64,000 nucleotides of DNA from Candidatus Omnitrophota bacterium (GCA_016198905.1 JACQHR010000011.1:7427-71426); one strand, 5' to 3'. Shown: positions 19,065-40,404, counted from the first letter of the stretch. Notes: a model not told the origin generated them from the letters alone. Translations and numbers: made by a program.

Positions 19065-20427
19065 CCGTCATCCCTTCTAAGGCGGCTTTGAGGCGGCTCT
19101 CGGAGTCGATCAGGAAGTTGCCGCTGGTGACGACGAGCTCCCCCTCGGACACGCCGCTCTTGATCTCATAGTAGCCCTCCGCCTTGACCCCAACGGTGAC
19201 ATCACGCGGCTCAAAAAGCCCCTGGCCTTTATCGACGAAGATGACCTGCTTTGTCCCCGTGTCGAACACGGCCTCTTCGGGAACTGCGAGCACCTCGCCC
19301 GCGGCGACGGCGATGGAGGCGTTCACGAACATCTCCGGCTTCAGGATATTCTCAGGATCGGTCAGGATAGCCCGCACGCGGGCTGATCGCGTCGCAGGAT
19401 CCAGCACCGGGTCGATCGAGCGGATCGTGCCTGCCAAGGTCTTGCCGGGAATGGCTTGGATTTCGATCGTGATGATCTGGCCGACGTTGACTAGCGGCAA
19501 TTCATACTCGTAGATCGGCGCATAGAGCCACACCCGACCATTCGGATCGGCCAGCAACAAGCTCTGGTCAGGCCCGGTCCAACCGGCCATCTCATCGATC
19601 AGCTCATTGCTTAACCCCAATCGACGCAGCCGAAAACGGCTGGAGTCAACCAGCCGCTGCGCCCGCTCAGTCACCTCCGGCATGGTGCCGGTCTTGGCTT
19701 GTTCCAACGCTTTCAGAGCCTGAAGGTATTCCTGCTCGGCCTGATACAGCTCCGGATCGTTCGCGATCTGTCCGACCGTTCGGATGATCTTGTTGATCGT
19801 CCGACGCTGCACTGGTGCTGTGGTGACACCGATGAACTGTCGCTTTTGGGACGTAACCAGGATTGGCGCGTACCCTTCAGGTGCAGTGGCTGAAACCTCA
19901 CCAGAGACTCCGTTTTCCTCGTAGACCGGAATCAGATCCATCCCCATCGGCGATTTGCCCGGCTTGTCCGACTTGTAGCCCGGAAGCATCGGATCGGTCC
20001 AGTAGAGGATTGTCTTCTCTTCCCCGGCGGGCGAGACGGAGGAGCTGACCGCAGCCTCCGCCACATGGGTTCCACAGATTGGGCAGACGACCTTTTCCCC
20101 CGCTTTGGCCATGACGAGCATGGGACATTTTTGTCCCGGCTTCATCATCGGGCAATTGTGCATGTAGCAAATATCTTTCGCCGTCTTTGCCGTGTGCTGT
20201 GTGCTTAGTGCCGTGTGCTGTGTGCTTTCTTTCTTGACCAACTTCATGTTGCAGATCGGACAGTCCCCGGGACGATCCGCGGTATAGGTGGGGTGCATCG
20301 GACAATAGTAGACGACCTGTTGGTGCGCGCCGGGACGGACCCGAGAGACGACTCCCACCACAGCCACGCCAAGGAGGCTGGCAATGATCAAGCCTCCAAT
20401 GAGTTGAGGGTTCTTGACGCGCATCAT
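19036..20427 (-). CDS. cusB: Efflux RND periplasmic adaptor (CusB-like) with N-terminal CPMHP..CPIC metal-binding modules
   Basis: 463 aa with YYCPMHPTY..CPICNMKL and CPMLV..CPICGTHV, plus a membrane-fusion-protein core. Contains an in-frame heptamer-repeat insertion (STQHTALSTQHTAKTAK). Confidence 0.9.
   Translation of the reverse strand: MMRVKNPQLIGGLIIASLLGVAVVGVVSRVRPGAHQQVVYYCPMHPTYTADRPGDCPICNMKLVKKESTQHTALSTQHTAKTAKDICYMHNCPMMKPGQKCPMLVMAKAGEKVVCPICGTHVAEAAVSSSVSPAGEEKTILYWTDPMLPGYKSDKPGKSPMGMDLIPVYEENGVSGEVSATAPEGYAPILVTSQKRQFIGVTTAPVQRRTINKIIRTVGQIANDPELYQAEQEYLQALKALEQAKTGTMPEVTERAQRLVDSSRFRLRRLGLSNELIDEMAGWTGPDQSLLLADPNGRVWLYAPIYEYELPLVNVGQIITIEIQAIPGKTLAGTIRSIDPVLDPATRSARVRAILTDPENILKPEMFVNASIAVAAGEVLAVPEEAVFDTGTKQVIFVDKGQGLFEPRDVTVGVKAEGYYEIKSGVSEGELVVTSGNFLIDSESRLKAALEGMTGGGHQHGGQ
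20189..20230. repeat. Two tandem 21-nt units built of GCTGTGT-type heptamers, inside cusB
   Basis: GCCGTGTGCTGTGTGCTTAGT followed by GCCGTGTGCTGTGTGCTTTCT. Confidence 0.9.
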
Positions 20428-21767
20428 CAGCTGCCTCCTGTAAGTTTCAAATCCGTTCCAACCGCCCGTTCGAGCGCTGCGAAACTTTTCAGCGCCTCGG
20501 CCAGCGCCTGATAGTAGGCGACTTGGGCGTTGAGGTAGACTCGTTCGCTATCGATGAGATTCAATACATCCATGCGGCCAGCCTCGTAGCCGGCCTGATC
20601 CGAGCGAAACGCCAGCTCCGCTTCAGGGATCAGGGCATTTTGGTAGACCTCCACCACCTGCTTGGCGGCGGTGAAGCGATAGTAGGCGTCCTTGACTTCA
20701 TACGCTGTGAAGTTCTCGGCCTGTTTGAGCTTGGCTTGGCTGGCGTTGAGATTTCGCTTCGCCTCCAGCACGCTGGGGATCAGGCGGTTTTGCCAGATGG
20801 GCAGGGTGATCTTCAACGGCACCATCCAGGCGTCGCGGCCATCATTGGGCTCGGTCGTCATGCCGGCGCCAATTTGGGTGTACTGGAATCCCACGGTAAG
20901 GTCCGGCACATACTCCAACTTGGCCAGGGTGTTGGCGTGCTGCTTCCGCTTCACCATCGCCGAGGCCTCGCCAAGTTCCGGGCGGCGCTTCTGAGCCGTC
21001 GCCAGGAGCTCTTCAAGCGTCGAGGACAGCGTAGACAACTCGGGTTGCTCCGCGTGTCCCACCGGCGTATGGGGATGACGGTCGAGCAGCGCGTTGAGCA
21101 GGGCGGCCGCCGTCTGACGCTGCTGGCGCAGCACCAACAACCGCTGCAGCACGTCCGAGACTTCAGCCTGGGCCTTGGCCACATCCCGCTGCGATCCGCC
21201 TTGCGCCGCGTACCGGGATTGGGCGATGCCTTCAAATCGTTTCAGCACTTCGTTGATCTCCTCCACGGCTTGCACCACGGCGTCGGTGGCATAAAGGTTA
21301 TAGTACGTGTCGGAAACCTTCAGGATGACGTCGCGCTCTGTGGCGTGGAGTTGGGCCTGAGCCGCTTGCGCCTCAGCCGCCGCCATGCGGTGCTTTTCCC
21401 AGAGCTTGCCGGGAAACGGCACCATCTGTTCGGCCTCATAGACGTTCATCTGGGGCCCGAGGCGGGTTTCCAAATCCGGTCCCATAATGGCGTAGCCAAC
21501 GCTCGGATCCGGAAGCGCCGAGGCTTGCGGGATGCGCAGCTTCGCGGCCCGCCACTGCTCCTTGGCCGCCTTGAGTTCCGGATTTCTCTCGAGCGCCTCG
21601 GTGATGACCTCTGCGAGACGAAGCTCCTCTGCCGGCTGCTCCTTCGCCGCTGCGTTAGGCGGCGACGCCATCTGGAGGACGAGCGCAGCCGTCAACAGAT
21701 CAATTCCTCGCATCCACGACCTCCTTGTTCCAAGACCTTCTCGGATCACGCGCTGACGCACGTGCAC
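20427..21767 (-). CDS. cusC: TolC-family outer-membrane efflux protein (CusC-like)
   Basis: 446 aa with a two-repeat OEP helical pattern. The stop overlaps the cusB start. The true start may be MRGIDLL (21713). Confidence 0.85.
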   Translation of the reverse strand: MHVRQRVIREGLGTRRSWMRGIDLLTAALVLQMASPPNAAAKEQPAEELRLAEVITEALERNPELKAAKEQWRAAKLRIPQASALPDPSVGYAIMGPDLETRLGPQMNVYEAEQMVPFPGKLWEKHRMAAAEAQAAQAQLHATERDVILKVSDTYYNLYATDAVVQAVEEINEVLKRFEGIAQSRYAAQGGSQRDVAKAQAEVSDVLQRLLVLRQQRQTAAALLNALLDRHPHTPVGHAEQPELSTLSSTLEELLATAQKRRPELGEASAMVKRKQHANTLAKLEYVPDLTVGFQYTQIGAGMTTEPNDGRDAWMVPLKITLPIWQNRLIPSVLEAKRNLNASQAKLKQAENFTAYEVKDAYYRFTAAKQVVEVYQNALIPEAELAFRSDQAGYEAGRMDVLNLIDSERVYLNAQVAYYQALAEALKSFAALERAVGTDLKLTGGS

Positions 21768-21819
21768 CTATCCTCGACATAGTGTATCAACATCCATGCG
21801 CCGAGGATAGCGACCGATA

Positions 21820-21872
21820 GATCAGTGTGGCAGGGCCTGCCGCTGCGCGTCACCCGCCACACTGACCATGCC
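21820..21872 (-). repeat. Dispersed repeat copy A, in the cusC leader
   Basis: The minus strand GGCATGGTCAGTGTGGCGGGTGACGCGCAGCGGCAGGCCCTGCCACACTGATC matches 47482-47512 plus 47598-47625 on the plus strand. Confidence 0.8.
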
Positions 21873-22000
21873 CCATCACTCAATTCCATCTGGACGGGAC
21901 ACGAGCCGCCCGCTGACAAATGCCACACCAACGCGTGGGCGGTGGGTCAGGGAGACAACCGCACACGAGACGGCTGCTCCCCAACCCTGCCGCTATCCGC

Positions 22001-22432
22001 TTACTGGGTTTTCTGCACGCTCGAGATCGCGATGAGGCGCTGCCCGTCGAGCTCCATCACTGTCCCGCGCACACTGACTATCTGCCCCGCGAACTCAGCT
22101 AGTTGCTGATTCGCCGGATTGTGGTCATTCATGGTCGCCAAGTAGAGTTGGTTGCCAACCTTGATGGCGACGGGTAAACCGCTCTTGATGCACTTCTTAG
22201 CGCAGCTTGCGTGCTTGGGCCCAATGCCCTCTGCCGGATGGCTGAGGTAGCAGAACACATCCGTGACTTCTCCAGTCAGTGTCTGCTCTTGCGGCGACCC
22301 TGTCATCGCCTGTTGCCCCGTGGCACCCATACCGTGATCATGGCCTCCATGCTCATGTTCGCTCTCGGCCAAGGCTGACGTTGCCCCAATCAACAACACC
22401 ATCCCGATAATTCCCTGCACTACGTGTTTCAT
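22001..22432 (-). CDS. Periplasmic His-rich, three-Cys protein (paralog B) upstream of cusC
   Basis: MKHVVQG start, signal peptide, SEHEHGGHDHGMG, then GEVTDVFCY..GPKHASCAKKCIKSGLP. Colinear with 15184..15576. Confidence 0.6.
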   Translation of the reverse strand: MKHVVQGIIGMVLLIGATSALAESEHEHGGHDHGMGATGQQAMTGSPQEQTLTGEVTDVFCYLSHPAEGIGPKHASCAKKCIKSGLPVAIKVGNQLYLATMNDHNPANQQLAEFAGQIVSVRGTVMELDGQRLIAISSVQKTQ

Positions 22433-22489
22433 TTCACTTCTCCTTATGAGTTGGGCCAGTGAGGCCCACGCGATACAGCAACACTAATG

Positions 22490-22501
22490 ATACCCCGGTA
22501 T
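22490..22501 (-). promoter_or_regulatory. Short CsoR-like palindrome ATACCCCGGTAT
   Basis: 5-bp arms ATACC/GGTAT, about 60 nt upstream of the paralog-B start (22432). Confidence 0.35.
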
Positions 22502-22537
22502 GGAGAAACACGCTGTCATCAAAACCTAAGGGTTTGA

Positions 22538-22954
22538 TTAGGAGAAACAATGAGGAGGCGCGTGGTTCGCGAACGTTGTCCGGTAGAACGGACGCGCTGG
22601 GATTGGTTCGTGTGCCGGAGGACTGAGGTTGTTGGGAATTGCGGAAAGGTCGATGAATCCCACGAGAGGGATTGCCTGCAGCGACATGGCCTGACGCAGC
22701 AGCGGCGACCCGCGAGCCAGGAGGAGCGTGAACTGTGGGATGACCACCGCATGCAGGGTGCTGCAGCAGGAATCGTTCGCTCGGGAGGGAGACTCGTCGT
22801 GATGATCTACGGGAGCATGCTGGTGAGTGTCGTTCACGTGCGCGTGGCCGCCACTGAAAGCCTCATAGGCGCAGTAGTTCGTCGCCATCAACAAGGCTCC
22901 GCCCACGATCCATGCGCTCAGGCGTATCGAGCATTCCATCAGGCGTTTTACCAT
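22538..22954 (-). CDS. Hypothetical His/Cys-containing membrane-anchored protein
   Basis: Start chosen at MVKRLMECS (22954) to avoid overlapping csoR. One TM helix, then GGHAHVNDTHQHAPVDHHDE and a CC pair. I recognise no family. Confidence 0.4.
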   Translation of the reverse strand: MVKRLMECSIRLSAWIVGGALLMATNYCAYEAFSGGHAHVNDTHQHAPVDHHDESPSRANDSCCSTLHAVVIPQFTLLLARGSPLLRQAMSLQAIPLVGFIDLSAIPNNLSPPAHEPIPARPFYRTTFANHAPPHCFS

Positions 22955-22979
22955 GACGCTCTTCCCTTTAGATGTCAGC

Positions 22980-23249
22980 CTATTTGACAAAGCGGTGGAT
23001 TGTTTGCATCAGTTCGGTGATCTTTGCTTTGCTCTCGCGTTTGCGGATCGCTTCGCTAACGCAGCCGTTGATGTGCCCATTCATGACTTTCAGCGAGACC
23101 TGGTCGAGCGCTTTGCGGGCCGCGGTGAGCTGCTGGATGATCTCGATGCAGTAGCGGCGCTGCTCGACCATGCGCGTGATGCCGCGCACCTGGCCTTCGA
23201 TGCGGCGCAGCCGTGGCAAGAGGTTATCGTGTTTCGGATATTCAGCCAT
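22980..23249 (-). CDS. csoR: CsoR-family copper-sensing transcriptional repressor
   Basis: An 89-aa product from ATG 23249 (MAEYPKHDNLLPRLRRIEGQVRGI..). C-H-C ligand pattern (RRYC ... GHINGC). The track start at 23339 (TTG) runs through a repeat hairpin. Confidence 0.85.
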   Translation of the reverse strand: MAEYPKHDNLLPRLRRIEGQVRGITRMVEQRRYCIEIIQQLTAARKALDQVSLKVMNGHINGCVSEAIRKRESKAKITELMQTIHRFVK

Positions 23250-23256
23250 AGGTTGG

Positions 23257-23290
23257 TACTCACCGGGAGTATACATACTCCCCCGTAGTA
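23257..23290 (-). promoter_or_regulatory. Two adjacent CsoR-type operator candidates
   Basis: TACTCACCGGGAGTA (23257-23271) and TACTCCCCCGTAGTA (23276-23290). Both have TAC..GTA arms around a G/C core and lie 8-41 nt upstream of the csoR start. Confidence 0.5.
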
Positions 23291-23305
23291 TGTCAAGTGC
23301 TATAA

Positions 23306-23397
23306 CAGCACAAAGCACTAAGCACACAGCACAAAGCAACTGCGTTCTGTGAAGATCCCACGACCCGCTTTATGCTTTGTGCTGTTTGCTGTGTGCT
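23306..23397. repeat. Heptamer-built inverted repeat (hairpin) between the DUF423 stop and the csoR promoter
   Basis: Left arm CAGCACAAAGCACTAAGCACACAGCACAAAGC, right arm TGCTTTGTGCTGTTTGCTGTGTGCT, loop of about 32 nt. Confidence 0.85.
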
Positions 23398-23399
23398 CA

Positions 23400-23762
23400 T
23401 CAGGGTTTTGCGGAGAGGGCGAGGAGGAGCCAGCCGATGAGCAACGCGAGGCCGCCGAAGGGGGTGATGATGCCGAGTTTCTTGATGCCGGTGACGGAGA
23501 GCAGATAGAGGCTGCCGGAAAAGAGGAGGATCCCGAGGACGAATGCGACGCCGGCGTTGCGAATCAACGGCTCCGAGGGCTTCAGTGTTGCCAGCCAGCC
23601 GACAGCCAGCAGCGCCAGGCCGTGAATGAGATGGTAGAAGACAGCCGTGTGGTAGATCTGCTTTCCTTCCGGCGTCAGCGTGTCCTTGAGCCCGTGCGCG
23701 CCAAAGGCGCCCAGGGCGACGCCCAGCAACATCACCAAACTACCGTAGCGTATCCAGATCAT
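23400..23762 (-). CDS. DUF423 membrane protein
   Basis: 120 aa, 4 TM helices, LGAFGAHGL and HGLALL motifs. Confidence 0.75.
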   Translation of the reverse strand: MIWIRYGSLVMLLGVALGAFGAHGLKDTLTPEGKQIYHTAVFYHLIHGLALLAVGWLATLKPSEPLIRNAGVAFVLGILLFSGSLYLLSVTGIKKLGIITPFGGLALLIGWLLLALSAKP

Positions 23763-23765
23763 CGG

Positions 23766-24812: not shown

Positions 24813-24818
24813 CGTCTC

Positions 24819-25421
24819 CTATTCGGCGATTTGGTCGAACAGCTCGCCATGCGTGGAACGAACAGGGGTCGCAGGACTCACCGGAAGCGTGACGCGCAGC
24901 TGGGCCGAACCGGGCAGACAAATCTGCTTGCACGCAAGCCACTTGACCGTGGCGGTAATGGGAATGCTGTCGGCGCTTGCCCGCGAGGCGATCTTCAGAG
25001 GGCTATACAGCACAAGCACCCCGGTGTAGCCGGACGTGTGAATGTCCCCTGCATCGACGAACTGCTCTGGTGTGGGCCACCACAGCGGGCCAAAGGTCAC
25101 GCCCGCAGGCCCGGACCATGCAATCATCGTCGGCAGCCCGGCGTCGCCGGGATCTTTGGCGTAGATGTGCCAGCCATCTTCAATGTCGAAATGCACACCC
25201 ACCCGAGTGTGTCCGCCTGGCTGAATCGAGGCATGTTCAGTGATCAGTTCCGCGGTGACCGGGTGCATCTTCGTAGGTGTTGATGTGGCTAACTCAGAAG
25301 ATGGAACGTCGGAGGCGCGGCACGCGGTATGAAACATAGCAAGAGATACCGCCAGGCATAGACTACATAGCAGCGGCAGGACCCGCTGCTGATCATCATC
25401 TCGCGAAGGAGCTATTCCCAT
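24819..25421 (-). CDS. DsbD N-terminal-domain-like periplasmic protein
   Basis: Signal peptide. [28 protein letters not shown] resembles the thiol:disulfide interchange DsbD/ScsB N-terminal domain pattern. Confidence 0.55.
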
Positions 25422-26962: not shown

Positions 26963-26978
26963 CGACTCAATTGGATTG

Positions 26979-27050
26979 GTGGCCGTGTGGCCTCGTGGCA
27001 GCGTGGCCGTGTCGCGTCGTGGCCACTGGGCCACGTGGTCACCTGGCTGC
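26979..27050. repeat. Octamer array (GTGGCCNN) x9 filling the guaB-like/guaA spacer
   Basis: gtggccgt gtggcctc gtggcagc gtggccgt gtcgcgtc gtggccac tgggccac gtggtcac ctggctgc. Confidence 0.85.
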
Positions 27051-28274: not shown

Positions 28275-28357
28275 TGTGTGCTACTCCTCTCGTGAGAAGA
28301 AACGATGAATGAGCGAGTCCAGCGCTAAGCACAAAGCACAAAGTAAAAACTGGTCTT

Positions 28358-28655: not shown

Positions 28656-29894
28656 TCAGTCTCGAGCCTTGCCGTCCCACGGGATTTCCTTCAGAAACGG
28701 ATAATGCTCCCTTACGAATGTAGTTTGCCGAGGAACACAGGTAATTACAACTTTAGTTATATCAATTTCACCAGAGATCCGATCATCCGCTCTGCTATAG
28801 AATGTGACTGTTTCGACCTCATCTTTGTGTTGTTTCCTCATAAGGGCCGAGAGTAGAGCATCGTTTTTCTTCGATTTCCAGATCTGACCTACCACGAATT
28901 CACCCTTTTTGAGAGTCTTTAGCGTCTTGATGGATGCGTCTGGACTAGTCGAGATCGATTGGCCTTCCGCAAGCCTTCCTAGAAACGAGAAACCTTCTCC
29001 GGCTCCTGAGGTAATTTTAACGTCATCCTCTAGTGCAGTTACCTTGAATTCATATAGTAGCCAAAAATTTATGGCCAACGGAGTCCAAGGAGCGCTCTGG
29101 ACTCGCACGGCTAACTCAACCAGGCTTTTCAAACAATAGGCAACTGTTTGCTCGGTCCAATTTCCCGGATGCCCATATGGGTCTTGTTGCCAATTGACCG
29201 ACAGTTGCCCGGAAGGCTCCTCGGTAATACGGGGTAGAAAATCTTGAAGGCATAGAAAACTATTTGCGTCAACACCGAATGGCATGAGTGCAGTAGCATC
29301 CGTCGCGCGCCCCACACCTACAGGAATGCCACGAATCGACGGGTTGTCAGAAGTCTTGATCAAATAGAACAGAGCACGCGCGAGCAGTTCAAGAGCTTCC
29401 TTATGTCTGCGATCACGATCTGCCTGCTTGGCCTCCGCTATTAGTGTCGCTATCTGTTCATCCTCCAAGAGAGCGGAGTCATCAATGTCGACTAGTGTTC
29501 GACCGAGATGCGCCTTGCATGCGTTCGAGATATGATCGAAGGTATCTCGTCCAACAGTTGCCCACTCATCAACGTTGGGTAATTGGCCCTGATGTTTGAT
29601 CGCAACACGTTGAAGATTGAGCCGCTGAATAAAGGCCGAAGGAGGTAGATCTACTTTAGCTTCGTTATGAAGCGTACCAGAATAATCAATGATGCCGAAA
29701 TTATGGGGCGGCTTCTTAGGCATATTAGGCGTATAACCAAGATGATCGACTATGGCAGATAGGGCCAATTCCGCCGCAGTATGCGCCACAAGGACGTGCC
29801 TGGCTACTTCGTGAGCGTTCTTCGTTTGCACGAAACGGATCTCACCTAAAAACGATTTACAAATAAGGAGCCGCTGAACAACATCTGGTCGCAT
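28656..29894 (-). CDS. Orphan hypothetical protein in an AT-richer island
   Basis: 412-aa ORF with ordinary, coding-like amino-acid composition. 60-nt lines I counted inside it are about 37-45% GC, against clearly GC-rich flanks. I recognise no domain. Confidence 0.6.
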   Translation of the reverse strand: MRPDVVQRLLICKSFLGEIRFVQTKNAHEVARHVLVAHTAAELALSAIVDHLGYTPNMPKKPPHNFGIIDYSGTLHNEAKVDLPPSAFIQRLNLQRVAIKHQGQLPNVDEWATVGRDTFDHISNACKAHLGRTLVDIDDSALLEDEQIATLIAEAKQADRDRRHKEALELLARALFYLIKTSDNPSIRGIPVGVGRATDATALMPFGVDANSFLCLQDFLPRITEEPSGQLSVNWQQDPYGHPGNWTEQTVAYCLKSLVELAVRVQSAPWTPLAINFWLLYEFKVTALEDDVKITSGAGEGFSFLGRLAEGQSISTSPDASIKTLKTLKKGEFVVGQIWKSKKNDALLSALMRKQHKDEVETVTFYSRADDRISGEIDITKVVITCVPRQTTFVREHYPFLKEIPWDGKARD

Positions 29895-30291: not shown

Positions 30292-30295
30292 AAAC

Positions 30296-30613
30296 TTAGG
30301 TGACGATGGCCAGAATATCGTCCTCGTTAAGGAAGACGTATTCCTTATCGTCGACCTTGATCTCGTTGCCTGAGTACTTGCCGAAGATGATCTTGTCGCC
30401 GGCCTTCACCGCCAACGGGACCACCTTGCCGTTCTTCAAGAGACGGCCGGAGCCCACCGCAATTACTTTGCCTTCTTGCGGCTTCTCCTGCGCGGAATCG
30501 GGAAGGTAGAGCCCGCCTCTGCTCTTTTCAGCGGATCCCAACCGTTGGGCGATCACCCGATCACCGATCGGCTTGAGTTTCAACGAACTCGCTGTTGCTG
30601 TTGCAGTCGCCAT
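30296..30613 (-). CDS. groES: Co-chaperonin GroES, second copy located downstream of groEL
   Basis: 105 aa: [69 protein letters not shown]. Confidence 0.85.
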   Translation of the reverse strand: MATATATASSLKLKPIGDRVIAQRLGSAEKSRGGLYLPDSAQEKPQEGKVIAVGSGRLLKNGKVVPLAVKAGDKIIFGKYSGNEIKVDDKEYVFLNEDDILAIVT

Positions 30614-30651
30614 TTGCGATCTCCTTCAACTCGGAACCCGGAACCGGTTTC

Positions 30652-32310
<1,659 letters not shown>

Positions 32311-32601
32311 TTACGATTGCACAACGGCGAGGATGTCGTCTTCTTTGAGGATGAGATAGTCCTCGCCCTCGACCGACACCTCGGTTCCCGAATACTTCCC
32401 GTATAACACGCGGTCGCCGTTCTTGATCTCGAGGGACTTCACCGTCCCATCATCAAGAAGGCGACCCGTTCCGATCGCAAGCACCTTTCCCTCTTGCGGC
32501 TTTTCCTTCGCGGAATCTGGCAAGACCAGTCCGCTCTTCGTTTTTCCCTGCGCATCGAGGGGTCTGACCACGATGCGATCTGCCAATGGTTTCAGCGCCA
32601 T
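32311..32601 (-). CDS. groES: Co-chaperonin GroES, first copy
   Basis: ATG at 32601 with AGGAGG upstream gives [29 protein letters not shown]. The track start (TTG 32679) runs through the CIRCE element. Confidence 0.95.
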
Positions 32602-32615
32602 GCGCCATCCTCCTG

Positions 32616-32642
32616 TTAGCAATCCACATTTCTGAGTGCTAA
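32616..32642 (-). promoter_or_regulatory. CIRCE operator (HrcA binding site)
   Basis: TTAGCAATC-N9-GAGTGCTAA against the consensus TTAGCACTC-N9-GAGTGCTAA. It lies 15 nt upstream of the groES start. Confidence 0.85.
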
Positions 32643-32751
32643 TTTGAGTTGATTGTAACAGCTCCGAAAGGCATTTCAAGGGTGAAAAACGAGATATTTA
32701 TTGATCTTGTGGCCTGATTATATCAGATAGATGAGTAAGACGCACTATATC

Positions 32752-33648
32752 TTATGATTTAAATGATTTCTTGCTCTGAGGCGGTTTTGGAAGAAGGCTC
32801 AGATGGTAGAGGCCTTCAAGGACAAGGTGGGGTTTGAGCACATCGATGGTCTTGGAATGCTTGACAATCAGCGGGCTGGCTCCGCCGGTGGCAACGACCT
32901 TGGCGTTTGGGGCATATTGCCTCTTCAGTTGGGTCACCAATCCATCGCAGAGCGCCACACAACCAAAGAGCACGCCGGAGCGGATGCTGTTGGCGGTGTC
33001 GCGGCCCAGCAGCTCGGGCGGCTCGCGCAGCTCAACTTTCGGCAAGAGCGCGGTGCGGCTGGCGAGCGCTTCGAGCGAGATATCCAGGCCGGGCGCGATG
33101 ACGCCGCCGAGGTATTCTCCACCCCGCCCCTTGCTCCCGGTTTGGCGGGGGCCAGCTTTCACGATATCAATGGTGATGGCAGTGCCAAAATCGGCGACGA
33201 TGCAATCCTGCCCGCGCCCCCTGCCCCCTGCCCCCTGCCCCTGAGGAGCGCCGAATTCCTTCCATGCAGCGTAAGCTCCAACCAGGCGGTCTTGCCCCAC
33301 CTGCTCCGGATATGCGTAGCGGTTCTTGAGCGGGACGAACACATCTTGGCCGACAATGCGAATGGGAACGGCCTTCAATGAATGTAGAGCCTCGGTCAGC
33401 ACCGAGGCCATGCGCGGCACGACGCTGCAGAGGACGATCTGCTTGGCTTTCGTGAGATGCAGCCGTCGGCTCGTGGCCAGCGCTTTCAGTTGAAGGGTGA
33501 CTTCATCCGGCGTGCGCCAGGGTTGTGTCGCGATGGAAAACTGCGATCTTAGCCGCGCGCCCTCCCCGGCCCGTCCATCACGAGAGCCGGGGCGGGCAAA
33601 GACGCCAAAGCTCGTCGTCGTGTTCCCGATATCAATCGCGATCATCAT
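32752..33648 (-). CDS. coaX: Type III pantothenate kinase
   Basis: MMIAIDIGNTTTSFGVF start and VADFGTAITID. Carries a repeat-encoded insertion PQGQGAGGRGRGQD. Confidence 0.9.
   Translation of the reverse strand: MMIAIDIGNTTTSFGVFARPGSRDGRAGEGARLRSQFSIATQPWRTPDEVTLQLKALATSRRLHLTKAKQIVLCSVVPRMASVLTEALHSLKAVPIRIVGQDVFVPLKNRYAYPEQVGQDRLVGAYAAWKEFGAPQGQGAGGRGRGQDCIVADFGTAITIDIVKAGPRQTGSKGRGGEYLGGVIAPGLDISLEALASRTALLPKVELREPPELLGRDTANSIRSGVLFGCVALCDGLVTQLKRQYAPNAKVVATGGASPLIVKHSKTIDVLKPHLVLEGLYHLSLLPKPPQSKKSFKS
33209..33243. repeat. (GCCCCCT)n heptamer array inside coaX
   Basis: TGCCCGCGCCCCCTGCCCCCTGCCCCCTGCCCCTG. The coding strand is G-rich. Confidence 0.9.
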
Positions 33649-33692
33649 CTGTTGATCTCTTCACCCCCACACCAAAGATTTGGTGTGGGGGT

Positions 33693-34523
33693 TCACCGCA
33701 ACAAGGTCACTTCGCCCATGTCGAAGGCGCGCTGGACGCCGGAGTCAAGACGGACGACGAGCCGGCCTTGCTCATCGAGATCGCTGGCGGTGCCTTCGAA
33801 GCGGCTGGAGCCGGCGGCGATGTGCACGACCTGGCCGAAGAGCCCCATGAACGGTCGCAGCGCTTCACGGATCGGGGCGAATCCTTGCGATGACCAGACA
33901 TCGTACCACGTCTGAAACTGGCGGCACAACGCCGCCGTCAGCTCATACGAGTCTGCGTGCATGGCTCCCGCGGCTTTGAGCGATGTCGCGTGCTCAGGCA
34001 AATCGAGCGGATCGGTGGTGACGTTGAGGCCGACGCCGATGATGACGTAGCTCTGTGTGCTGTGTGCTTGGTGCTGTGTGCTAAAGGGTATTGCGGCTTC
34101 CACCAAAATCCCGCATACCTTTTTACCATCGATGAGGACGTCATTCGGCCAGCGGATCGTGGCAAACAACCCCGCAGATTGTTGAATCGTCTGCACCGCC
34201 GCGAGCCCGGCCACGAGCGACAGCTGCGGGATTTCGGTAGCGGTATGCAGGGGCCAGAGAATCAGCGAGAAGTACGCACCGCCTGCGGGCGACTCCCACA
34301 CGCGGCCAAGCCGGCCACGTCCCTGCTCCTGGCGCTGGGCCCACACGAGTGTCCCGTGCGGCGCGCGTTGTTGGGCCAGCTCATGCGCGACTTCCATCGT
34401 CGAGCCGACGGACGAAAACGCGTACAGCGAGCGGCCCATGGCGGTGCCCTCGAGGTGCTGGCGCAGCCGGGCTTCAAGCGCGCAATCGCGTGCGACTGGG
34501 GCGGCGGCGCTGGGTTGGCTCAT
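33693..34523 (-). CDS. birA: Biotin--[acetyl-CoA-carboxylase] ligase
   Basis: GRGRLGRVWESPAGG (GRGRxGRxW) motif. The start may be internal, since the track start overlaps uvrB by 50 nt. Contains an in-frame heptamer segment STQHQAHSTQS. Confidence 0.85.
   Translation of the reverse strand: MSQPSAAAPVARDCALEARLRQHLEGTAMGRSLYAFSSVGSTMEVAHELAQQRAPHGTLVWAQRQEQGRGRLGRVWESPAGGAYFSLILWPLHTATEIPQLSLVAGLAAVQTIQQSAGLFATIRWPNDVLIDGKKVCGILVEAAIPFSTQHQAHSTQSYVIIGVGLNVTTDPLDLPEHATSLKAAGAMHADSYELTAALCRQFQTWYDVWSSQGFAPIREALRPFMGLFGQVVHIAAGSSRFEGTASDLDEQGRLVVRLDSGVQRAFDMGEVTLLR
34053..34082. repeat. GCTGTGT-type heptamer array inside birA
   Basis: CTGTGTGCTGTGTGCTTGGTGCTGTGTGCT. Confidence 0.9.
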
Positions 34524-36498
34524 CGCTGAGGTGATAGGTGTCTTTCAAGGAACGAATCTGGTCGCGCAGCACGGCGGCGCGCTCAAACTGCAGCCCTTTG
34601 GCGCACAGGAGCATCTCCTCCTCGAGCTCGGAGAGCGTCTGCATGACCTCATGCTGCTCGATCGAAAGGCCGGACTGCTCGACGGTAAACGCTTCGGCCT
34701 GCCGGACCGCTTCGATGCTTTCCCGGATCGCTTTGATGATCGTGGTCGGCGTGATGGCGTTGCGCTGATTGTAGTCGAGCTGCTTCGCGCGCCGGCGGTT
34801 CGTCGTTTCCATCAGTGCTCGCATCGCGCCGGTGAGATGATCGCCATAGAGGATCACTTCGCCGTTGACGTTGCGCGCGGCCCGGCCGGCCACCTGGATG
34901 AGCGATGTCGCTGAACGGAGGAACCCTTCCTTATCCGCATCGAGGACCGCGACGAGCGAGACCTCGGGTAAGTCCAACCCTTCGCGCAGCAGGTTGATCC
35001 CGACGAGGCAGTCGAAATCACCTTTGCGCAGGTCGCGCAGGATTTCCACGCGCTCGATGGCATCGATATCCGAGTGCAGATACTTCACGCGCAAACCCGC
35101 CTCGGTGAGATAGCGCGTGAGATCTTCGGACATGCGTTTCGTCAGCGTCGTCACCAGCACGCGCTCTTTCTTCTCTGCGCGGACCTTGACCTGCTGAATC
35201 AGGTCATCAACTTGACCGGTGGTCGGTTTGACCGTGATGGCTGGGTCGATGAGCCCTGTCGGACGAATGACTTGCTGCACGACCTTGCCTTCGCAGCGCT
35301 CAAGCTCATACGGCCCCGGCGTGGCCGAGACAAAGATCGTTTGGTTGAGTAAGTCTTCGAATTCTTGAAACGTCTGCGGCCGATTCTCGAGCGCCGAGGG
35401 CAGCCGGAAGCCGTACTCGACGAGGACTTCTTTGCGCGCGCGGTCGCCTTCGTACATGCCGCGCACCTGCGGGACGGTGACGTGCGACTCATCGATGATG
35501 AGGAGGTAGTCTTTAGGAAAATAGTCGATGAGGCAATTGGGCCGCGAGCCTGGAGCTCGTCCGGCCAAGTGCCGCGAGTAGTTTTCCATGCCGTGGCAGT
35601 AGCCGAGCTCTTTCAACATTTCGAGGTCGTACTTGGTGCGCGACTCCAATCGCTGCGCTTCGAGGAGCTTGTTCTGCGTTTGGAGATTGCGCACGCACTC
35701 GAGCATCTCGGCGCGAATAGTCTCAAGCCCGACAGCGAGTTTGTCTTTATTGGTGAGGAAGTGCTTGGCCGGATAGATGGCGATCTTCGGCAACTCGCTT
35801 AAGGAGTCGGAGGTCACCGGATCGATCTCGCGAATGCGGCCGATCTGTTCTCCTGAGAGCTCGACGCGGTACGCGGTCTGGCGATACGCCGGGAAGATAT
35901 CGATGATGTCGCCGCGCACGCGGAACGTCCCGCGATGAAAATCGACGTCGTTGCGCGCGTATTGGATGCCCACCAGCCACGAGAGGATCTCATCGCGCCG
36001 CGCGGTCGTGCCGACGGTGAGCCACACCATCTGCTGGCTGTACTCATCAGGGTCGCCGAGATTATAGATGCACGAGACGCTGGCCACGATGATCGTATCG
36101 CGCCGGCTGAGCAGCGAGCTCGTGGCAGAGAGACGCAGCCGATCCAGGTCGTCGTTGATCGCCGCGTCCTTGTCGATGTAGGTGTCGGTCTGCGGGACGT
36201 AGGCTTCGGGCTGGTAGTAGTCGTAGTAGCTCACGAAATATTCGACCGCGTTGTGCGGAAACAGGTTCTTGAATTCACTGTAGAGCTGCGCCGCGAGCGT
36301 CTTGTTGTGCGAGATGACCAGCGTGGGTTTGTTGATGTTAGCGATGACGTGACTGACGCTGAAGGTCTTTCCGCTGCCCGTGACGCCCAGCAGCGTCTGA
36401 AACTTCTTCCCAGTCTGCACCCCTTCGGTGAGCGCCTTGATGGCCTCAGGTTGATCACCTTTAGGCGTGAGGTCTGTGACGAGCTCAAATCGATCCAT
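34474..36498 (-). CDS. uvrB: Excinuclease ABC subunit B
   Basis: 674 aa with GVTGSGKT, helicase motifs and a C-terminal UVR domain (FERAAVLRDQI). Confidence 0.97.
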   Translation of the reverse strand: MDRFELVTDLTPKGDQPEAIKALTEGVQTGKKFQTLLGVTGSGKTFSVSHVIANINKPTLVISHNKTLAAQLYSEFKNLFPHNAVEYFVSYYDYYQPEAYVPQTDTYIDKDAAINDDLDRLRLSATSSLLSRRDTIIVASVSCIYNLGDPDEYSQQMVWLTVGTTARRDEILSWLVGIQYARNDVDFHRGTFRVRGDIIDIFPAYRQTAYRVELSGEQIGRIREIDPVTSDSLSELPKIAIYPAKHFLTNKDKLAVGLETIRAEMLECVRNLQTQNKLLEAQRLESRTKYDLEMLKELGYCHGMENYSRHLAGRAPGSRPNCLIDYFPKDYLLIIDESHVTVPQVRGMYEGDRARKEVLVEYGFRLPSALENRPQTFQEFEDLLNQTIFVSATPGPYELERCEGKVVQQVIRPTGLIDPAITVKPTTGQVDDLIQQVKVRAEKKERVLVTTLTKRMSEDLTRYLTEAGLRVKYLHSDIDAIERVEILRDLRKGDFDCLVGINLLREGLDLPEVSLVAVLDADKEGFLRSATSLIQVAGRAARNVNGEVILYGDHLTGAMRALMETTNRRRAKQLDYNQRNAITPTTIIKAIRESIEAVRQAEAFTVEQSGLSIEQHEVMQTLSELEEEMLLCAKGLQFERAAVLRDQIRSLKDTYHLSDEPTQRRRPSRTRLRA

Positions 36499-36546
36499 AC
36501 GTCCGGCTCTGCAAGCTGCCCGGCCACCCGCGCCGCATCAAATGGC

Positions 36547-37431
36547 TCATTGGATCACTCGCAGCGACATATCCAACGAGGTCGCAGAGTGGGTGAGGCG
36601 GCCGATGGAGATGCGATCGACGCCGGTCTTGGCGATGGCGCGGACGTTGGCCAGCGTCACGCCGCCGGAAACTTCCAGCAAGACAGACCGGAGACCGGAG
36701 ACCGGAGACCGGACCGCCGCCCGAATTTCTTTAAGTGACATGTTGTCTAAGAGAATCGCGTCAGGTCGTGCATGGAGTGCCACTTGGAACTCACGGAGGT
36801 TTGTCACTTCGATTTCCACAGACCGCCTTGGTCTGACACGTTTGGCTGTTGCGACGAGCAGGGGGACGAGGCTTTCACTGTGTGCTGTGTGCTGTGTGCT
36901 GTGTGCTCTCAGGTGGTTCGTCTTGATCAAGATCGCCTCGGCCAGATCGCTGCGATGACTGGAGCCCCCGCCGGCGCGGACCGCGCACTTTTCTAGCGCA
37001 CGCAATCCGGGGGTCGTTTTCCTGGTGTCGAAAATTTTCGCGCGCGTGCCACGGACTCGCTGCACATAGGCCTGTGTCAGTGTGGCGATGCCGGAAAGAT
37101 GTCCAAGGAAATTGAGTGCGACCCGTTCGGCAGCGAAGATCGAGCGCGCTCGTCCCTCGATGGTGAGAATGGGCGTGCCAGGAGAAATCTTGGCACCGGA
37201 ACGCACGTGCAGCCGGCAGCGCAATGATGGATCCAGGGTCTTGAACGTCAGCATCGCCATCTTCACGCCGGCGGCGATACCGGACGACTTCGCGATGATG
37301 CGAGCCGTAATGCGCTGATTTGCCGGGATGATGGCGCGCGAGGTGACGTCGTGGCGGGCGCGATCCTCTGCGAGGGCGTGGCGAATGATCGGCAGCACTG
37401 CGCGGGCGGTCACGTCAGCCATTGCGCTCAC
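36547..37431 (-). CDS. nadC: Nicotinate-nucleotide diphosphorylase (carboxylating)
   Basis: 294 aa with ILIKTNH and LLEVSGGVTL..ISIGRLTHS. Carries two repeat-encoded segments (AHSTQHTAHS; VRSPVSGLRS). Confidence 0.9.
   Translation of the reverse strand: MSAMADVTARAVLPIIRHALAEDRARHDVTSRAIIPANQRITARIIAKSSGIAAGVKMAMLTFKTLDPSLRCRLHVRSGAKISPGTPILTIEGRARSIFAAERVALNFLGHLSGIATLTQAYVQRVRGTRAKIFDTRKTTPGLRALEKCAVRAGGGSSHRSDLAEAILIKTNHLRAHSTQHTAHSESLVPLLVATAKRVRPRRSVEIEVTNLREFQVALHARPDAILLDNMSLKEIRAAVRSPVSGLRSVLLEVSGGVTLANVRAIAKTGVDRISIGRLTHSATSLDMSLRVIQ
36685..36712. repeat. (AGACCGG)x4 heptamer array inside nadC
   Basis: Four perfect tandem AGACCGG units. Confidence 0.95.
36878..36907. repeat. (CTGTGTG)x4 heptamer array inside nadC
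   Basis: CTGTGTGCTGTGTGCTGTGTGCTGTGTGCT. Confidence 0.95.
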
Positions 37432-40307
37432 ATGGCTTGCAGAACAGCGAGGTGCTCGGCGGTTTTCTTGAGCGTCTCTTCGAGCTGAGTCTTGCGATCG
37501 CGGGCTCCCTGAACGACCTCTGCCGGAGCCTTCTCGGTGAAGTGGCGATCCTTGAGGCGCGCTTCAGCCTGCTGCAAATGCTTCGTGAGCTCCTCCACCT
37601 GCTGTTGCTTGCGCGCGCGTTCTTTGTCAACATCGATCAGGCCGGCCAGCGGCAGGATGACTTCGATGCCATCGACGACCGCTGAAGCGGCGTCCTTGGG
37701 CTTCTGCGCCTTCGCGGCTACATGCACCTCACCCACGCCCGCCAGCGTCTTGAGCAGCGACTGCTGCGACTCGAAAAAGCTGCGCAGCGCGGCGTGCTGC
37801 GTGATCAGATGCACCGGCGGTTTGCGATCAGGCGGGACGTTCAATTCCGCGCGCGTCGTACGGATCGCTCCCACCACCGCGGTGAAACGTTCAAACTGCG
37901 ATTCCGCTTCATCATCAATGAGTTTTTTGTCTGGTTTTGGCCAAGCCGCCTTCATGATCGACACGGCTTTGTCAGTGTGCTGTGTGCTGTGTGCTGTGTG
38001 CTGGAGCTGTTGCCAGAGCTCTTCGGTGACAAACGGCATCACCGGATGCAGCAATCGTAGGCCCGTCTCCAACACATGGACAAGAATAGCTTTGGTGGTT
38101 TCTTGTTGCTTGGTGCTTGGTGCTTGGTGCTGAAGTTGGACTTTTGCGATCTCCAGATACCAGTCGCAGAAATCGTGCCAGAGAAAATCGTACAACGCGG
38201 TGGCCGCCTCATTAAAGAGGCACGCATCCAGCGACTTCGTCACGGCCATCACGGTATGCTGCAGCCGCGAGAGAATCCATCGATCGGGTACAGTGATGGC
38301 AGCGGGTCCTGCCGCCTGCGAGACCCCGCCGTCCGTCCTCGCCCGGCGACTATCGCGCCGGCTCTCCGGGCGGGCGGCAGGGGCCTCCCCTCCGGCGTCA
38401 CCCGCTGCAAGCACGAAGCGCGTCGCGTTCCAGAGTTTGTTGGCGAAGTTGCGGCCGGCGGTAAAACGCTCTTCCGAAAGAAAGATATCCTGCCCGATCG
38501 CCGTGGAGGTGATCAGCGTATAGCGCAACGCATCCGTACCGTACTGCTTGATAATGTCCAGCGGATCAATGATATTGCCGAGCGACTTGGACATCTTCTT
38601 GCCGGTGATGTCGCGCACGGTGCCATGGATGTAGACGTTGGAAAACGGCAAGTCCTTCATGCAGAAGTAGCCGGCCATGACCATGCGCGCGACCCAGAAG
38701 AAGATGATCTCTTGCGCGGTCACCAGCGTATCCGTTGGATAGAAATAGTCGAGGTCTTTGGTCTTATTCGGCCATCCCAGCGTCGAGAATGGCCATAACC
38801 ACGAGGAGAACCACGTATCCAGCACATCTTCATCTTGCTTGAGGTCAACGTTTCCACATTGAGGACACGTTGCGGGTTTCGATTTCGAAACGATTACACC
38901 GAGCTCTGGGGCGTGGGGCGCGGGGCGTGGGGCATGGGTTGGGATCTTCCCCTGCCCCCTGTCTCCCGCCCCTTGCCCCTGACTACAGTTATTGCAGTAC
39001 CAGACCGGCAAACGATGGCCCCACCAGATTTGGCGGCTGATGCACCAGTCCTCGATGTTCTCCATCCAATTCAAGTACACCTTGGTCCAACGCTCGGGCG
39101 AAAACTTCAACTTCCCTTTCTTCACCGCTTCGATGGCCGGCTTGGCCAACGGCTTCATCTTCACGAACCATTGCGGACTCAAGCGCGGTTCAACGACGGT
39201 ATGACATCGATAGCAATGACCGACGTTGTGCTGATGCTCATCGATCGCCCCAAGAAATCCTTGCTGCTCCAAGTCGACGATCAACTTGCTGCGGCAGTCG
39301 AGCCGATCCAAGCCCTCATACGCCTTCGGCACGTTGGTCATGTGCGCGTCATCGGTCATCACGTTGATAAACTCCAACCCGTGTTTCTTTCCGAGTTGGA
39401 AGTCGACCGGATCGTGCGCCGGCGTCACTTTGACCGCTCCGGTGCCGAATGCTTTATCGACTTGCTCATCGGCAATGATGGAAATCTTCCGATTCACGAG
39501 CGGCAGGATCGCGTGCTTGCCGATCAACGCCTTATAGCGCTTGTCTTTCGGATGGACGGCAATCGCGGTGTCGCCGAGCATCGTCTCGGGCCTCGTCGTG
39601 GCAACTTCAATAAAGTCAGGGGCGTGGGGCGTGAGGCGTGGGGCGTGGGACTTCTTTTTCCCCTGCCCCCCGTCCCCTGCCCCCTGCCCCTCAATCGGAT
39701 AGCGAATATGATACAGCTTGCCTTGCGTGTCCTTGCGCGGCGCTTCTTCATCGGCGAGTGCGGTTTGACAGCGCGGGCACCAGTTGATGATGTAGTTGCC
39801 GCGATAAATGAGCCCGTCGTTGTAGAGTCGGATAAAGACGTCGAGCACCGCTTCGGAAAGCCCTTCATCCATCGTGAAGCGCGTCCGGCGCCAGTCACAC
39901 GAGGAGCCAAGCCGCTTGAGCTGATACAAAATCGTATTGCCGTACTGCTCCTTCCATTGCCACACGCGCTGGATGAACGCGTCGCGCCCTAAGTCCTGGC
40001 GCGTCTTCCCTTCCTTGGCCAGGGCGCGCTCGACGACGTTTTGCGTGGCGATGCCGGCGTGGTCAGTTCCGGGAACCCACAACGCATTGAAGCCCTGCAT
40101 GCGCTTCCAGCGAATCAGGATGTCCTGAATCGTATTGTTGAGCGCATGGCCCATGTGCAGGATGCCCGTGATATTGGGCGGCGGGATCACGATCGTGTAG
40201 GGCTTGCGTGTGGGATCGACGTCGGCCTGGAACAGGCCCTGAGCCTCCCACCATTGATAGCGGGATTCTTCGACAGTCTGTGGATTGTACTGCGAAGGCA
40301 ACTCCAT
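37428..40307 (-). CDS. valS: Valine--tRNA ligase
   Basis: 959 aa with HMGHALN (HIGH), KMSKSLGN (KMSKS), ATTRPETMLGDTA and a C-terminal coiled coil. Four repeat-derived in-frame insertions. Confidence 0.97.
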   Translation of the reverse strand: MELPSQYNPQTVEESRYQWWEAQGLFQADVDPTRKPYTIVIPPPNITGILHMGHALNNTIQDILIRWKRMQGFNALWVPGTDHAGIATQNVVERALAKEGKTRQDLGRDAFIQRVWQWKEQYGNTILYQLKRLGSSCDWRRTRFTMDEGLSEAVLDVFIRLYNDGLIYRGNYIINWCPRCQTALADEEAPRKDTQGKLYHIRYPIEGQGAGDGGQGKKKSHAPRLTPHAPDFIEVATTRPETMLGDTAIAVHPKDKRYKALIGKHAILPLVNRKISIIADEQVDKAFGTGAVKVTPAHDPVDFQLGKKHGLEFINVMTDDAHMTNVPKAYEGLDRLDCRSKLIVDLEQQGFLGAIDEHQHNVGHCYRCHTVVEPRLSPQWFVKMKPLAKPAIEAVKKGKLKFSPERWTKVYLNWMENIEDWCISRQIWWGHRLPVWYCNNCSQGQGAGDRGQGKIPTHAPRPAPHAPELGVIVSKSKPATCPQCGNVDLKQDEDVLDTWFSSWLWPFSTLGWPNKTKDLDYFYPTDTLVTAQEIIFFWVARMVMAGYFCMKDLPFSNVYIHGTVRDITGKKMSKSLGNIIDPLDIIKQYGTDALRYTLITSTAIGQDIFLSEERFTAGRNFANKLWNATRFVLAAGDAGGEAPAARPESRRDSRRARTDGGVSQAAGPAAITVPDRWILSRLQHTVMAVTKSLDACLFNEAATALYDFLWHDFCDWYLEIAKVQLQHQAPSTKQQETTKAILVHVLETGLRLLHPVMPFVTEELWQQLQHTAHSTQHTDKAVSIMKAAWPKPDKKLIDDEAESQFERFTAVVGAIRTTRAELNVPPDRKPPVHLITQHAALRSFFESQQSLLKTLAGVGEVHVAAKAQKPKDAASAVVDGIEVILPLAGLIDVDKERARKQQQVEELTKHLQQAEARLKDRHFTEKAPAEVVQGARDRKTQLEETLKKTAEHLAVLQAM
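37975..38002. repeat. (GTGTGCT)x4 heptamer array inside valS
   Basis: GTGTGCTGTGTGCTGTGTGCTGTGTGCT. Confidence 0.95.
38103..38132. repeat. (TGGTGCT)-type heptamer array inside valS
   Basis: TTGTTGCTTGGTGCTTGGTGCTTGGTGCTG. Confidence 0.9.
38907..38978. repeat. 72-nt G-arm/C-arm heptamer hairpin module 1 inside valS
   Basis: GGGGCGT GGGGCGC GGGGCGT GGGGCAT .. loop .. CCCCTGCCCCCTGTCTCCCGCCCCTTGCCC. Encodes GQGAGDRGQGKIPTHAPRPAPHAP. Confidence 0.9.
39618..39689. repeat. 72-nt G-arm/C-arm heptamer hairpin module 2 inside valS
   Basis: AGGGGCGTGGGGCGTGAGGCGTGGGGCGTGGGA .. CTTCTTTTT .. CCCCTGCCCCCCGTCCCCTGCCCCCTGCCC. Encodes GQGAGDGGQGKKKSHAPRLTPHAP. Confidence 0.9.
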
Positions 40308-40314
40308 GGCGGAT

Positions 40315-40404
40315 TAGCACAAAGCAGAAAGCACAAAGCACAATGAACGGGTCATGCTGGTTGTTTGCGTTTTCTGTGTGCTGTGTGCTGTGTGCTGTGT
40401 GCTT
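40315..40404. repeat. Heptamer-built inverted repeat spanning the cimA stop codon, 8 nt upstream of the valS start
   Basis: Left arm TAGCACAAAGCAGAAAGCACAAAGCACA, right arm TCTGTGTGCTGTGTGCTGTGTGCTGTGTGCTT. The cimA stop at 40352-40354 lies in the loop. Confidence 0.9.

Follow-up and report, generated by a model that had tools for sequence, protein, structure and literature searches.

Heptanucleotide repeat arrays in frame within housekeeping genes of an Omnitrophota bacterium, and their probable copying between nearby loci

How does a repeat with 7-nt units, a length out of step with codons, come to lie, open and in frame, inside essential genes? This question is raised by a stretch of 64,000 nucleotides from a Candidatus Omnitrophota bacterium (GCA_016198905.1, JACQHR010000011.1:7427-71426), hereafter the window, in which short tandem arrays of 7-nt units lie between genes and within others such as valS, nadC, birA, and coaX. 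A preliminary description had listed six arrays, two paired arrays, and one remnant; their positions and peptides were borne out on re-examination, but the list was incomplete, since seven more arrays had been missed, including a pair of hairpin elements inserted in frame in valS, an additional nadC array, and the array of coaX. The arrays are real and non-random, and more extensive than had been described. Probably, they are dispersed blocks of heptanucleotide repeats that have been copied between nearby loci and then filtered by selection.

With a strict autocorrelation scan, 14 arrays of period 7 were detected in the window, compared with zero to three for each of the other periods in the range 4-12, and a looser threshold yielded 17 arrays versus 0.55 in shuffled sequences. 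A unit scan with GCTGTGTGCTGTGT, in which up to two mismatches were allowed, returned 20 matches, where 100 shuffles of the window had a mean of 0.5 and none exceeded 2. The excess of period 7 over neighboring periods recurs in five of the six fetched relatives of the clade, and also across 80 loci of valyl-tRNA synthetase (ValRS), mostly from Omnitrophota. Both Tandem Repeats Finder (TRF) and autocorrelation describe head-to-tail 7-nt copies that are longer than expected by chance, as in the heptanucleotide long simple sequence repeats (SSRs) of bacteria. The mainly intergenic location and the broad range of copy numbers of that class were not found, since coding sequence contains 42 of the 49 heptamer arrays of the examined loci, in a sample biased toward valS, and no array exceeds 5.1 copies. 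Over 61 arrays, the median copy number is 4.1, the most common value is 4.0-4.5 (25 of 61), and the modal array length is 30-31 nt. The arrays are also clustered: the 12 loci with arrays at 20-41 kb take up 20.2 kb out of the 64 kb of the window (P=2.5e-5, simulation).

The comparison with relatives relies on seven syntenic loci with the gene order leuA-valS-nadC-uvrB-birA (L081, L082, and L203-L207), from assemblies that were made independently and drawn from NCBI, JGI, and ENA. The host genes were confirmed by Pfam as coding for a CusB/HlyD-type adaptor with heavy-metal-binding motifs, BirA, NadC, ValRS, a LeuA/CimA-type synthase, and CoaX. In alignments with orthologues that lack them, the arrays stand out as extra segments within intact housekeeping genes, as had been claimed. 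Unless otherwise indicated, and apart from the pair at 49809-49876, the arrays described below are on the minus strand.

The gene valS (37428-40307) contains six arrays. At site 1 (39619-39690, amino acids ~208-231) a family B composite of the form (GGGGCAG)4-loop-(CCCACGC)4 encodes GQGAGDGGQGKKKSHAPRLTPHAP, with a fold of -51.6 kcal/mol (z -5.1), and corresponds to a 22-residue gap in the solved ValRS of T. thermophilus (1GAX); apart from L207, five relatives have hairpins built of other units here. A second family B composite, (GGGGCAG)~4 plus loop plus (CCCACGC)~4, is found at site 2 (38907-38979, amino acids ~444-468), where it encodes GQGAGDRGQGKIPTHAPRPAPHAP and folds at -46.9 kcal/mol (z -4.2). 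Site 4 (38102-38131, amino acids 726-735) is formed by four units of the family A variant AGCACCA, giving the peptide QHQAPSTKQQ, and its insert starts in the coil between model helices 698-726 and 732-753. Finally, four perfect family A units at site 5 (37975-38003, amino acids 769-778) encode QHTAHSTQHT; this segment is missing in L207 and L081 and falls in a gap of 1GAX. Relative to distant orthologues and 1GAX, the ValRS of the window has five extra segments, four of which are heptamer arrays. In an AlphaFold model of this protein (mean predicted local distance difference test, pLDDT, 78.5) every insert is placed in coil and four of the five have a pLDDT below 50 (residues 209-228, 444-465, 638-668, and 774-778), so that the inserts are predicted to sit in disordered loops; the expectation of surface loops in the preliminary description agrees with both the gaps of 1GAX and the coil of the model.

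The fifth extra segment, at site 3 (~38300-38395, amino acids 638-668), is a 31-residue GC-rich insert of low complexity, GDAGGEAPAARPESRRDSRRARTDGGVSQAAG, and L081 has a different long insert where this one lies. It may represent a fully decayed array. A decayed 7-nt periodicity was sought in this segment and in the additional inserts of CoaX described below, and none was found, for which reason they are not counted as arrays.

Family A, whose unit reads AGCACAC on the coding strand, is represented at 8 loci of the window. In a cusB-like membrane-fusion gene (19036-20427) six AGCACAC-type units at 20189-20230 encode STQHTALSTQHTAK in the linker that follows the first heavy-metal-binding motif. 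TRF detected here a perfect 21-nt duplication, equivalent to three units (20188-20227, 100% match), a frame-preserving expansion step. Four units lie in frame in birA (33693-34523) at 34053-34082, with the peptide STQHQAHSTQ; this array is missing from L081, L203, L204, and L206, and unrelated inserts are held at that position by L207 and L205. Two arrays are in frame in nadC (36547-37431): four perfect family A units at 36878-36907 (peptide RAHSTQHTAH) and (CCGGTCT)4, AGACCGG on the plus strand, at 36685-36713 (peptide SPVSGLRS). At the former site L203 holds a different array, of unit GCAGGGT, and the net length is about that of L207 and L205; the loop that contains the latter is of similar length in relatives. 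By these alignments, the NadC arrays have replaced existing loop sequence instead of simply adding length. In coaX, which encodes a type III pantothenate kinase (32752-33648), a (GGGGCAG)~5 array at 33207-33241 is translated in frame as PQGQGAGGRGRGQ. Nothing is present at this site in L081 and L206, and L082 and L205 have different inserts. CoaX has 298 residues in the window versus 254-273 in relatives, and two more unique inserts without detected periodicity were noticed in it, ARPGSRDGRAG (residues ~20-30) and KAGPRQTGSKGRG (residues ~166-178).

The constancy of the STQHTAH-like peptide had been taken in the preliminary description as a sign of selection on insert length. This does not follow, because 7 and 3 share no factor and 21 nt of any such array cycle through all three frames. 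The six intragenic family A arrays use phases 0, 0, 2, 1, 1, and 2, and with all three phases giving an identical cyclic peptide, the shared peptide is no evidence of frame selection. That every array leaves its ORF open had also been regarded as special. All 13 intragenic arrays of the window keep the frame and have no stop codon; purifying selection on essential genes, which leaves only such cases to be observed (survivorship), suffices for this, and no special mechanism is needed. The same arithmetic restricts growth, since one 7-nt unit shifts the frame, and therefore the arrays of valS, nadC, birA, and coaX can have grown only by multiples of 3 nt and not unit by unit. Programmed frameshifting and translational bypass were considered and rejected, as no intragenic array interrupts or shifts its reading frame.

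The further claim that the strand which is read is under selection is supported. In 31 of 42 intragenic arrays from six genomes, the peptide of the sense strand exceeds that of the antisense strand in hydrophilicity (Wilcoxon p=0.004, a value that is indicative only, because hairpin arms and family copies are not independent). The mean hydropathy of these 42 arrays is -0.88 on the read strand versus +0.22 on the other, and for family A the values are -1.5 for STQHTAH and +3.1 for the antisense VCCVLCA. In one array of L082, a T-to-C change is located exactly where an in-frame TGA would fall.

The history of the arrays can be followed in the relatives. The ValRS of the window is 100% identical to an NCBI protein of a 'Candidatus Omnitrophica bacterium' metagenome-assembled genome. 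The nearest species-representative genomes belong to Omnitrophota and share only ~55% ValRS identity with the window; in a large protein database, ~70 ValRS proteins of the clade were found at 58-82% identity, with lengths of 880-996 amino acids and differing low-complexity segments at shared alignment positions. Five of the syntenic loci (L082 and L203-L206) have 6-10 arrays each, the majority of which fall in valS, in nadC, or at the junction of leuA and valS. Their units are genome-specific and differ from those of the window at the window's array sites, and these genomes likewise reuse their own units at several loci. For instance, a paired-array hairpin is found at ValRS site 1 (residue ~205) in the window, L082, L203, L204, and L205, each time with a different unit. 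Even more distant Omnitrophota (43-57% GC) have arrays of 4.3-4.7 copies, at ValRS residues ~205, ~440-515, ~663, and ~748. L207, the closest relative, with 82% ValRS identity, contains three elements of the window at matching sites, namely the junction hairpin and the family B composites of valS sites 1 and 2, which indicates that these were inherited; it has none of the family A arrays seen in nadC, in birA, and at valS sites 4 and 5. In short, array turnover is rapid and restricted to a limited number of permissive places. No period-7 array was found in the 16 kb of L081 (76% ValRS identity, 63% GC), a natural control genome for finding the array generator. Relatives on both sides of L081 on the identity scale do carry arrays.

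At 5681-8243 and 4054-5635 of L207 (GCA_016180605.1), valS is split into two ORFs and leuA is frameshifted, and the invariant NKLWNATRF region of valS is lost exactly at ValRS insert site 3. These could be either pseudogenes or products of mis-assembly at the repeats. Further copies were sought by two other routes. A metagenome scan with (AGCACAC)3 gave 120 loci, none of them related to the window by blastn or tblastx; no conspecific copies were obtained because this motif is a generic microsatellite of many organisms. Protein-database queries with (STQHTAH)6 and (VCCVLCA)6, meant to count host proteins and to check the strand bias, were uninformative: they returned only hypothetical ORFs of 40-72 residues over long microsatellites, and missed the window's own ValRS as well.

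That the arrays might be errors of assembly or sequencing, or segments that are not translated but bypassed or removed in the way of the 'byp' elements of yeast mitochondria, is extremely unlikely. The source is indeed a metagenome-assembled genome, and the broken valS and leuA of L207 are possible assembly errors near repeats. Nonetheless, the arrays are ~30 nt long, which is shorter than a sequencing read; similar arrays occur in eight independent assemblies from three archives, with three elements orthologous between two of them; and skipped segments would not need to be in frame and free of stop codons, as all 13 intragenic arrays of the window are.

When two arrays face each other in inverted orientation, long hairpins with one small bulge per unit are predicted (-32 to -52 kcal/mol, z -4.2 to -5.3), a stability reached by none of 200 shuffles. 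Arrays that stand alone are unstructured (z about 0 to +1.4). Besides the two composites of valS, three such pairs lie outside or at the edge of genes. The first (23307-23397), composed of ~4 family A units, a 34-nt loop, and ~4 units, is a bulged hairpin between the stop codon of a DUF423 gene (23400) and a csoR-like gene (-43.8 kcal/mol, z -4.6). The second, also of family A (40316-40403), bridges leuA/cimA and valS: the tail of LeuA, QAHSTQHTAH, is encoded by arm 1 (40374-40403), the stop codon of leuA sits in the loop, and arm 2 (40316-40343) is directly upstream of the start codon of valS (-32 kcal/mol, z -4.5). The 589-residue ORF at 40352-42121 is over-extended at this locus, and alignment with relatives places the start of LeuA/CimA at M56 (window position 41956). 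The third pair, GGTTCNG x3, loop, and CNGAACC x3 (49809-49876), is situated beyond the range covered by the preliminary description and forms a hairpin between two same-strand genes (-43.2 kcal/mol, z -4.9).

The arms of family B deviate from perfect complementarity in an identical way in every unit of all four copies (two sites in two genomes), and this consistent difference implies copies of one composite element rather than hairpins that arose separately. It is a difficulty for the view that each array originated in place, by replication slippage on a chance local duplication and without any transfer between loci, which we judge very unlikely. In its favor, heptanucleotide repeats are the most abundant class of long SSRs in most bacterial genomes and slippage has been proposed to produce them, according to the accounts of the survey by Mrazek, Guo and Shah (2007) given in PMC4679880 and PMC4692102; moreover, units differ between genomes, and the cusB-like array contains a 21-nt slippage product. 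On the other side, one unit recurs at 8 loci of the window and an identical composite at two sites, with canonical heptamers expected to match by chance in ~1 of 1000 cases. Gradual growth in valS, nadC, birA, and coaX is barred by the frame shift of each single-unit step, and copy numbers are capped at ~5, without the broad spread that is typical of slippage.

Block copying followed by selection thus remains our preferred explanation, and it may be pictured as follows. A block has ~4 heptanucleotide units in tandem (28-31 nt) and stands either singly or facing an inverted second block across a short loop, in which case it makes a hairpin of 80-100 nt with a regular bulge per unit. The permissive places are junctions of same-strand genes and, within proteins, surface loops, linkers, and C-terminal tails. 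In a first step, whole blocks would be copied from locus to locus, mostly over short range, as the shared units, the shared composites, and the clustering suggest. Slipped-strand mispairing may then keep the units alike, with length changes inside genes possible only in 21-nt steps, of which one is seen in the cusB-like array. Lastly, selection would spare those inserts whose net length is a multiple of three, that contain no stop, that encode a hydrophilic and disordered peptide, and that fall in a tolerant loop. In this way, housekeeping enzymes would gain short low-complexity loops. Copying is favored because AGCACAC is present at 8 loci and the family B composite at two valS sites and both L207 sites, because essential genes do not permit an array to grow in place step by step, and because the array loci cluster.

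Several observations weigh against this explanation. Neither target-site duplications, nor terminal inverted repeats, nor conserved ends were found at the flanks of the arrays, and the annotated genes from 19 to 42 kb include no transposase or reverse transcriptase. The NadC arrays add no net length, and the different units at identical protein sites could mean that old inserts are overwritten instead of being inserted repeatedly. The census itself covers ~190 kb of eight related genomes, with the relatives picked via valS, and the orientation test suffers from the dependence among arrays mentioned above. In the junction hairpin, 29 of 30 positions of arm 1 are identical between the window and L207, although the flanking coding DNA is ~80% identical and the loop hardly aligns; such conservation could be a sign that the element is functional, not neutral or selfish. 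Finally, slippage and selection do not account for the sharp preference for four units, given that intergenic arrays are of equal size.

A different proposal is that the arrays are miniature non-autonomous mobile elements, of the MITE (miniature inverted-repeat transposable element) or REPIN kind, driven by a transposase encoded elsewhere in the genome, with the inverted pair as the mobile unit and single arrays as half-elements. The hallmarks of such elements are target-site duplications at terminal inverted repeats, or else REP hairpins paired with a RAYT transposase. REP sequences are extragenic and are not known to consist of heptamer units, which counts against this proposal. It would fit with the genome-specific unit families, with the hairpins formed by inverted doublets, and with the recurrence of one composite element at several sites; as far as the account in PMC3116915 goes, REPINs are inverted REP doublets that behave as mobile DNA. 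The flanks show no consistent duplication and no conserved ends beyond the arrays, no transposase is annotated from 19 to 42 kb, copies are strongly clustered locally where a transposase would be expected to scatter them, and single arrays are as frequent as pairs. On balance, we regard a MITE/REPIN origin as improbable.

The conservation of arm 1 leads to another possibility, that arrays are kept by selection as functional cis-elements of the mRNA or DNA (acting on stability, on translation rate, through G-quadruplexes, or through a protein that binds heptads one by one) or as beneficial disordered loops. We hold this to be unlikely. The paired arrays fold far better than their shuffles, including that at 49809-49876; an array is present at the leuA-valS junction in every relative examined except L081; and family B arrays fit the G-quadruplex motif. 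In addition, similar elements of Geobacter were annotated by their authors as predicted regulatory RNAs (PMC2700814), and the repeats studied by Rehm et al. are transcribed and lie near ORF ends (PMC4692102). Against a function stand the wholly different units of related genomes at one and the same site, the existence of L081 without any arrays, and the lack of structure of single arrays. High conservation can also be produced by concerted evolution within an array. A search of Rfam 15 at the gathering thresholds found no family at any array, its matches in the window being two tRNAs and one c-di-GMP-I riboswitch. As for G-quadruplexes, only the family B and coaX arrays fit a motif of four G-tracts with at least three G each; families A and C and most units of the relatives (e.g., AGCACAC, ACTCCGA, and GTCGTTA) have no G-tracts, and G-quadruplex formation was rejected as a general reason for the four units.

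The constant size of the arrays admits one more idea, which is speculative and in our opinion improbable: a dedicated mechanism, independent of the unit, that writes blocks of ~30 nt with four heptamers, as well as inverted doublets, at gaps or breaks of the DNA. The writer might be, as one possibility, a polymerase, a primase-polymerase, or a reverse transcriptase that recopies a 7-nt template. If this were true, a writing activity would be common to Omnitrophota, Geobacter, Xanthomonas, and cyanobacteria, both the 7-nt period and the four-unit size would be explained, and L081 would be a natural loss-of-function genome for that activity.

The preliminary description considered the arrays not to be a described phenomenon, which is too strong in view of three precedents (PMC4679880, PMC4692102, PMC2700814). 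They are best filed in the known class of over-represented heptamer repeats of bacteria, of which they are a striking example and not a new phenomenon. According to the account in PMC4679880, the survey by Mrazek found that unit lengths divisible by three were the likeliest to fall in coding regions, in contrast to the heptamers described here, which are predominantly coding in the valS-biased sample. The closest precedent is Geobacter metallireducens, in which 49 elements of four heptamers (Gmet_H401-H449) are found within and between genes, ~20 of them in intact metabolic genes such as cobS, cbiD, cobQ, lpdA, sucB, and the Ddl-FtsQ linker (Aklujkar et al., 2009; PMC2700814, Fig. S2, Table S4). 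Common to that genome and the window are the four units, the dispersed family, the presence in genic and intergenic positions (with sometimes two or three elements per gene in Geobacter), and the clustering. The consensus of Geobacter, GGACCGG, matches the AGACCGG unit of nadC in six of seven positions, seven nucleotides being too few to establish homology, and the units of all other window arrays are unrelated to it. Geobacter belongs to another phylum and has one dominant family, whereas several families per genome, differing between relatives, are observed here. Furthermore, its elements were read as regulatory RNAs, and frame, peptide, position in the structure, or turnover at the same site were not analyzed in that paper (PMC2700814).

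Other precedents share part of these features. The G-rich heptamers GGGNATC and GGGGA(C/T)T of Xanthomonas and Nostoc also show a preference for four units and inverted pairs (Rehm et al., 2015; PMC4692102). Like the arrays of the window, these repeats and the STRR repeats of cyanobacteria have a period of 7 with some inverted pairs able to form stem-loops, and they are often located between same-strand genes, near or overlapping stop codons, as in the leuA-valS junction element (PMC4692102). Rehm et al. ascribe the four units to G-quadruplex formation, an explanation inapplicable to AGCACAC, ACTCCGA, GTCGTTA, and most units reported here (PMC4692102). The comparison with STRR repeats and with the palindromic elements of Rickettsia (RPEs), already drawn in the preliminary description, is apt as an analogy. 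RPEs are reportedly selfish palindromes of ~100 nt described by Ogata et al. in 2000, which lie in frame in housekeeping genes, are translated, and are tolerated in surface regions of the proteins. They are longer, with defined consensus sequences, and are not known to be tandem heptamers; the likeness would be one of anatomy, an in-frame, translated palindrome located in a loop, with no apparent relationship of sequence. Borg elements also resemble the window in that, according to PMC9879509, fast-evolving tandem repeats in their ORFs add disordered segments to proteins, although Borgs are extrachromosomal elements of archaea. The unit here is of 7 nt. In Borgs, the intragenic repeat units are not known to depart from multiples of 3 nt.

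In our literature searches, the heptamer-array phenomenon in Omnitrophota was not found described, nor was any account found of arrays that recur at fixed ValRS loops across a phylum with turnover of the unit; the same applies to in-frame paired-array hairpins working in an RPE-like manner and to the orientation bias. The over-representation of heptamers and the preference for four units were reported between 2007 and 2015 and are still without an accepted cause. It is important to note that ValRS is universally conserved, and that its same loops contain four-unit arrays of different units in dozens of Omnitrophota genomes. With close relatives both with and without arrays, this lineage is a tractable comparative system. 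The arrays also illustrate that a repeat can be domesticated as protein sequence even if its unit length is not divisible by three, with relevance for the annotation of low-complexity inserts in uncultured bacteria and for how essential enzymes acquire disordered loops.

Some minor features of the window complete the description. A family A remnant of 2.4 units, AAGCACA, lies in an intergenic position at 28327-28343 on the plus strand. It adjoins a 412-residue ORF without Pfam match (28656-29894, minus strand); the region from 28 to 30 kb has the lowest GC content of the window, 52.6% versus ~60% overall, and the stretch of this ORF may be foreign DNA. At the 5′ end of guaA, a repeat of period 8 and 24 nt, GGCCGTGTCGCCTCGTGGCAACGG, is present in 2.2 copies (26979-27032), and the guaA ORF has 540 residues in the window versus 516 in L205. 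Two genes for Cpn10 (GroES), at 30296-30613 and 32311-32679, flank groEL, an arrangement kept in L081, L082, L205, and L206. The c-di-GMP-I riboswitch aptamer found with Rfam is at 52060-52134 on the minus strand (58.9 bits, gathering score 35) and begins ~40 nt upstream of the start codon of a 710-residue ORF (49885-52017).

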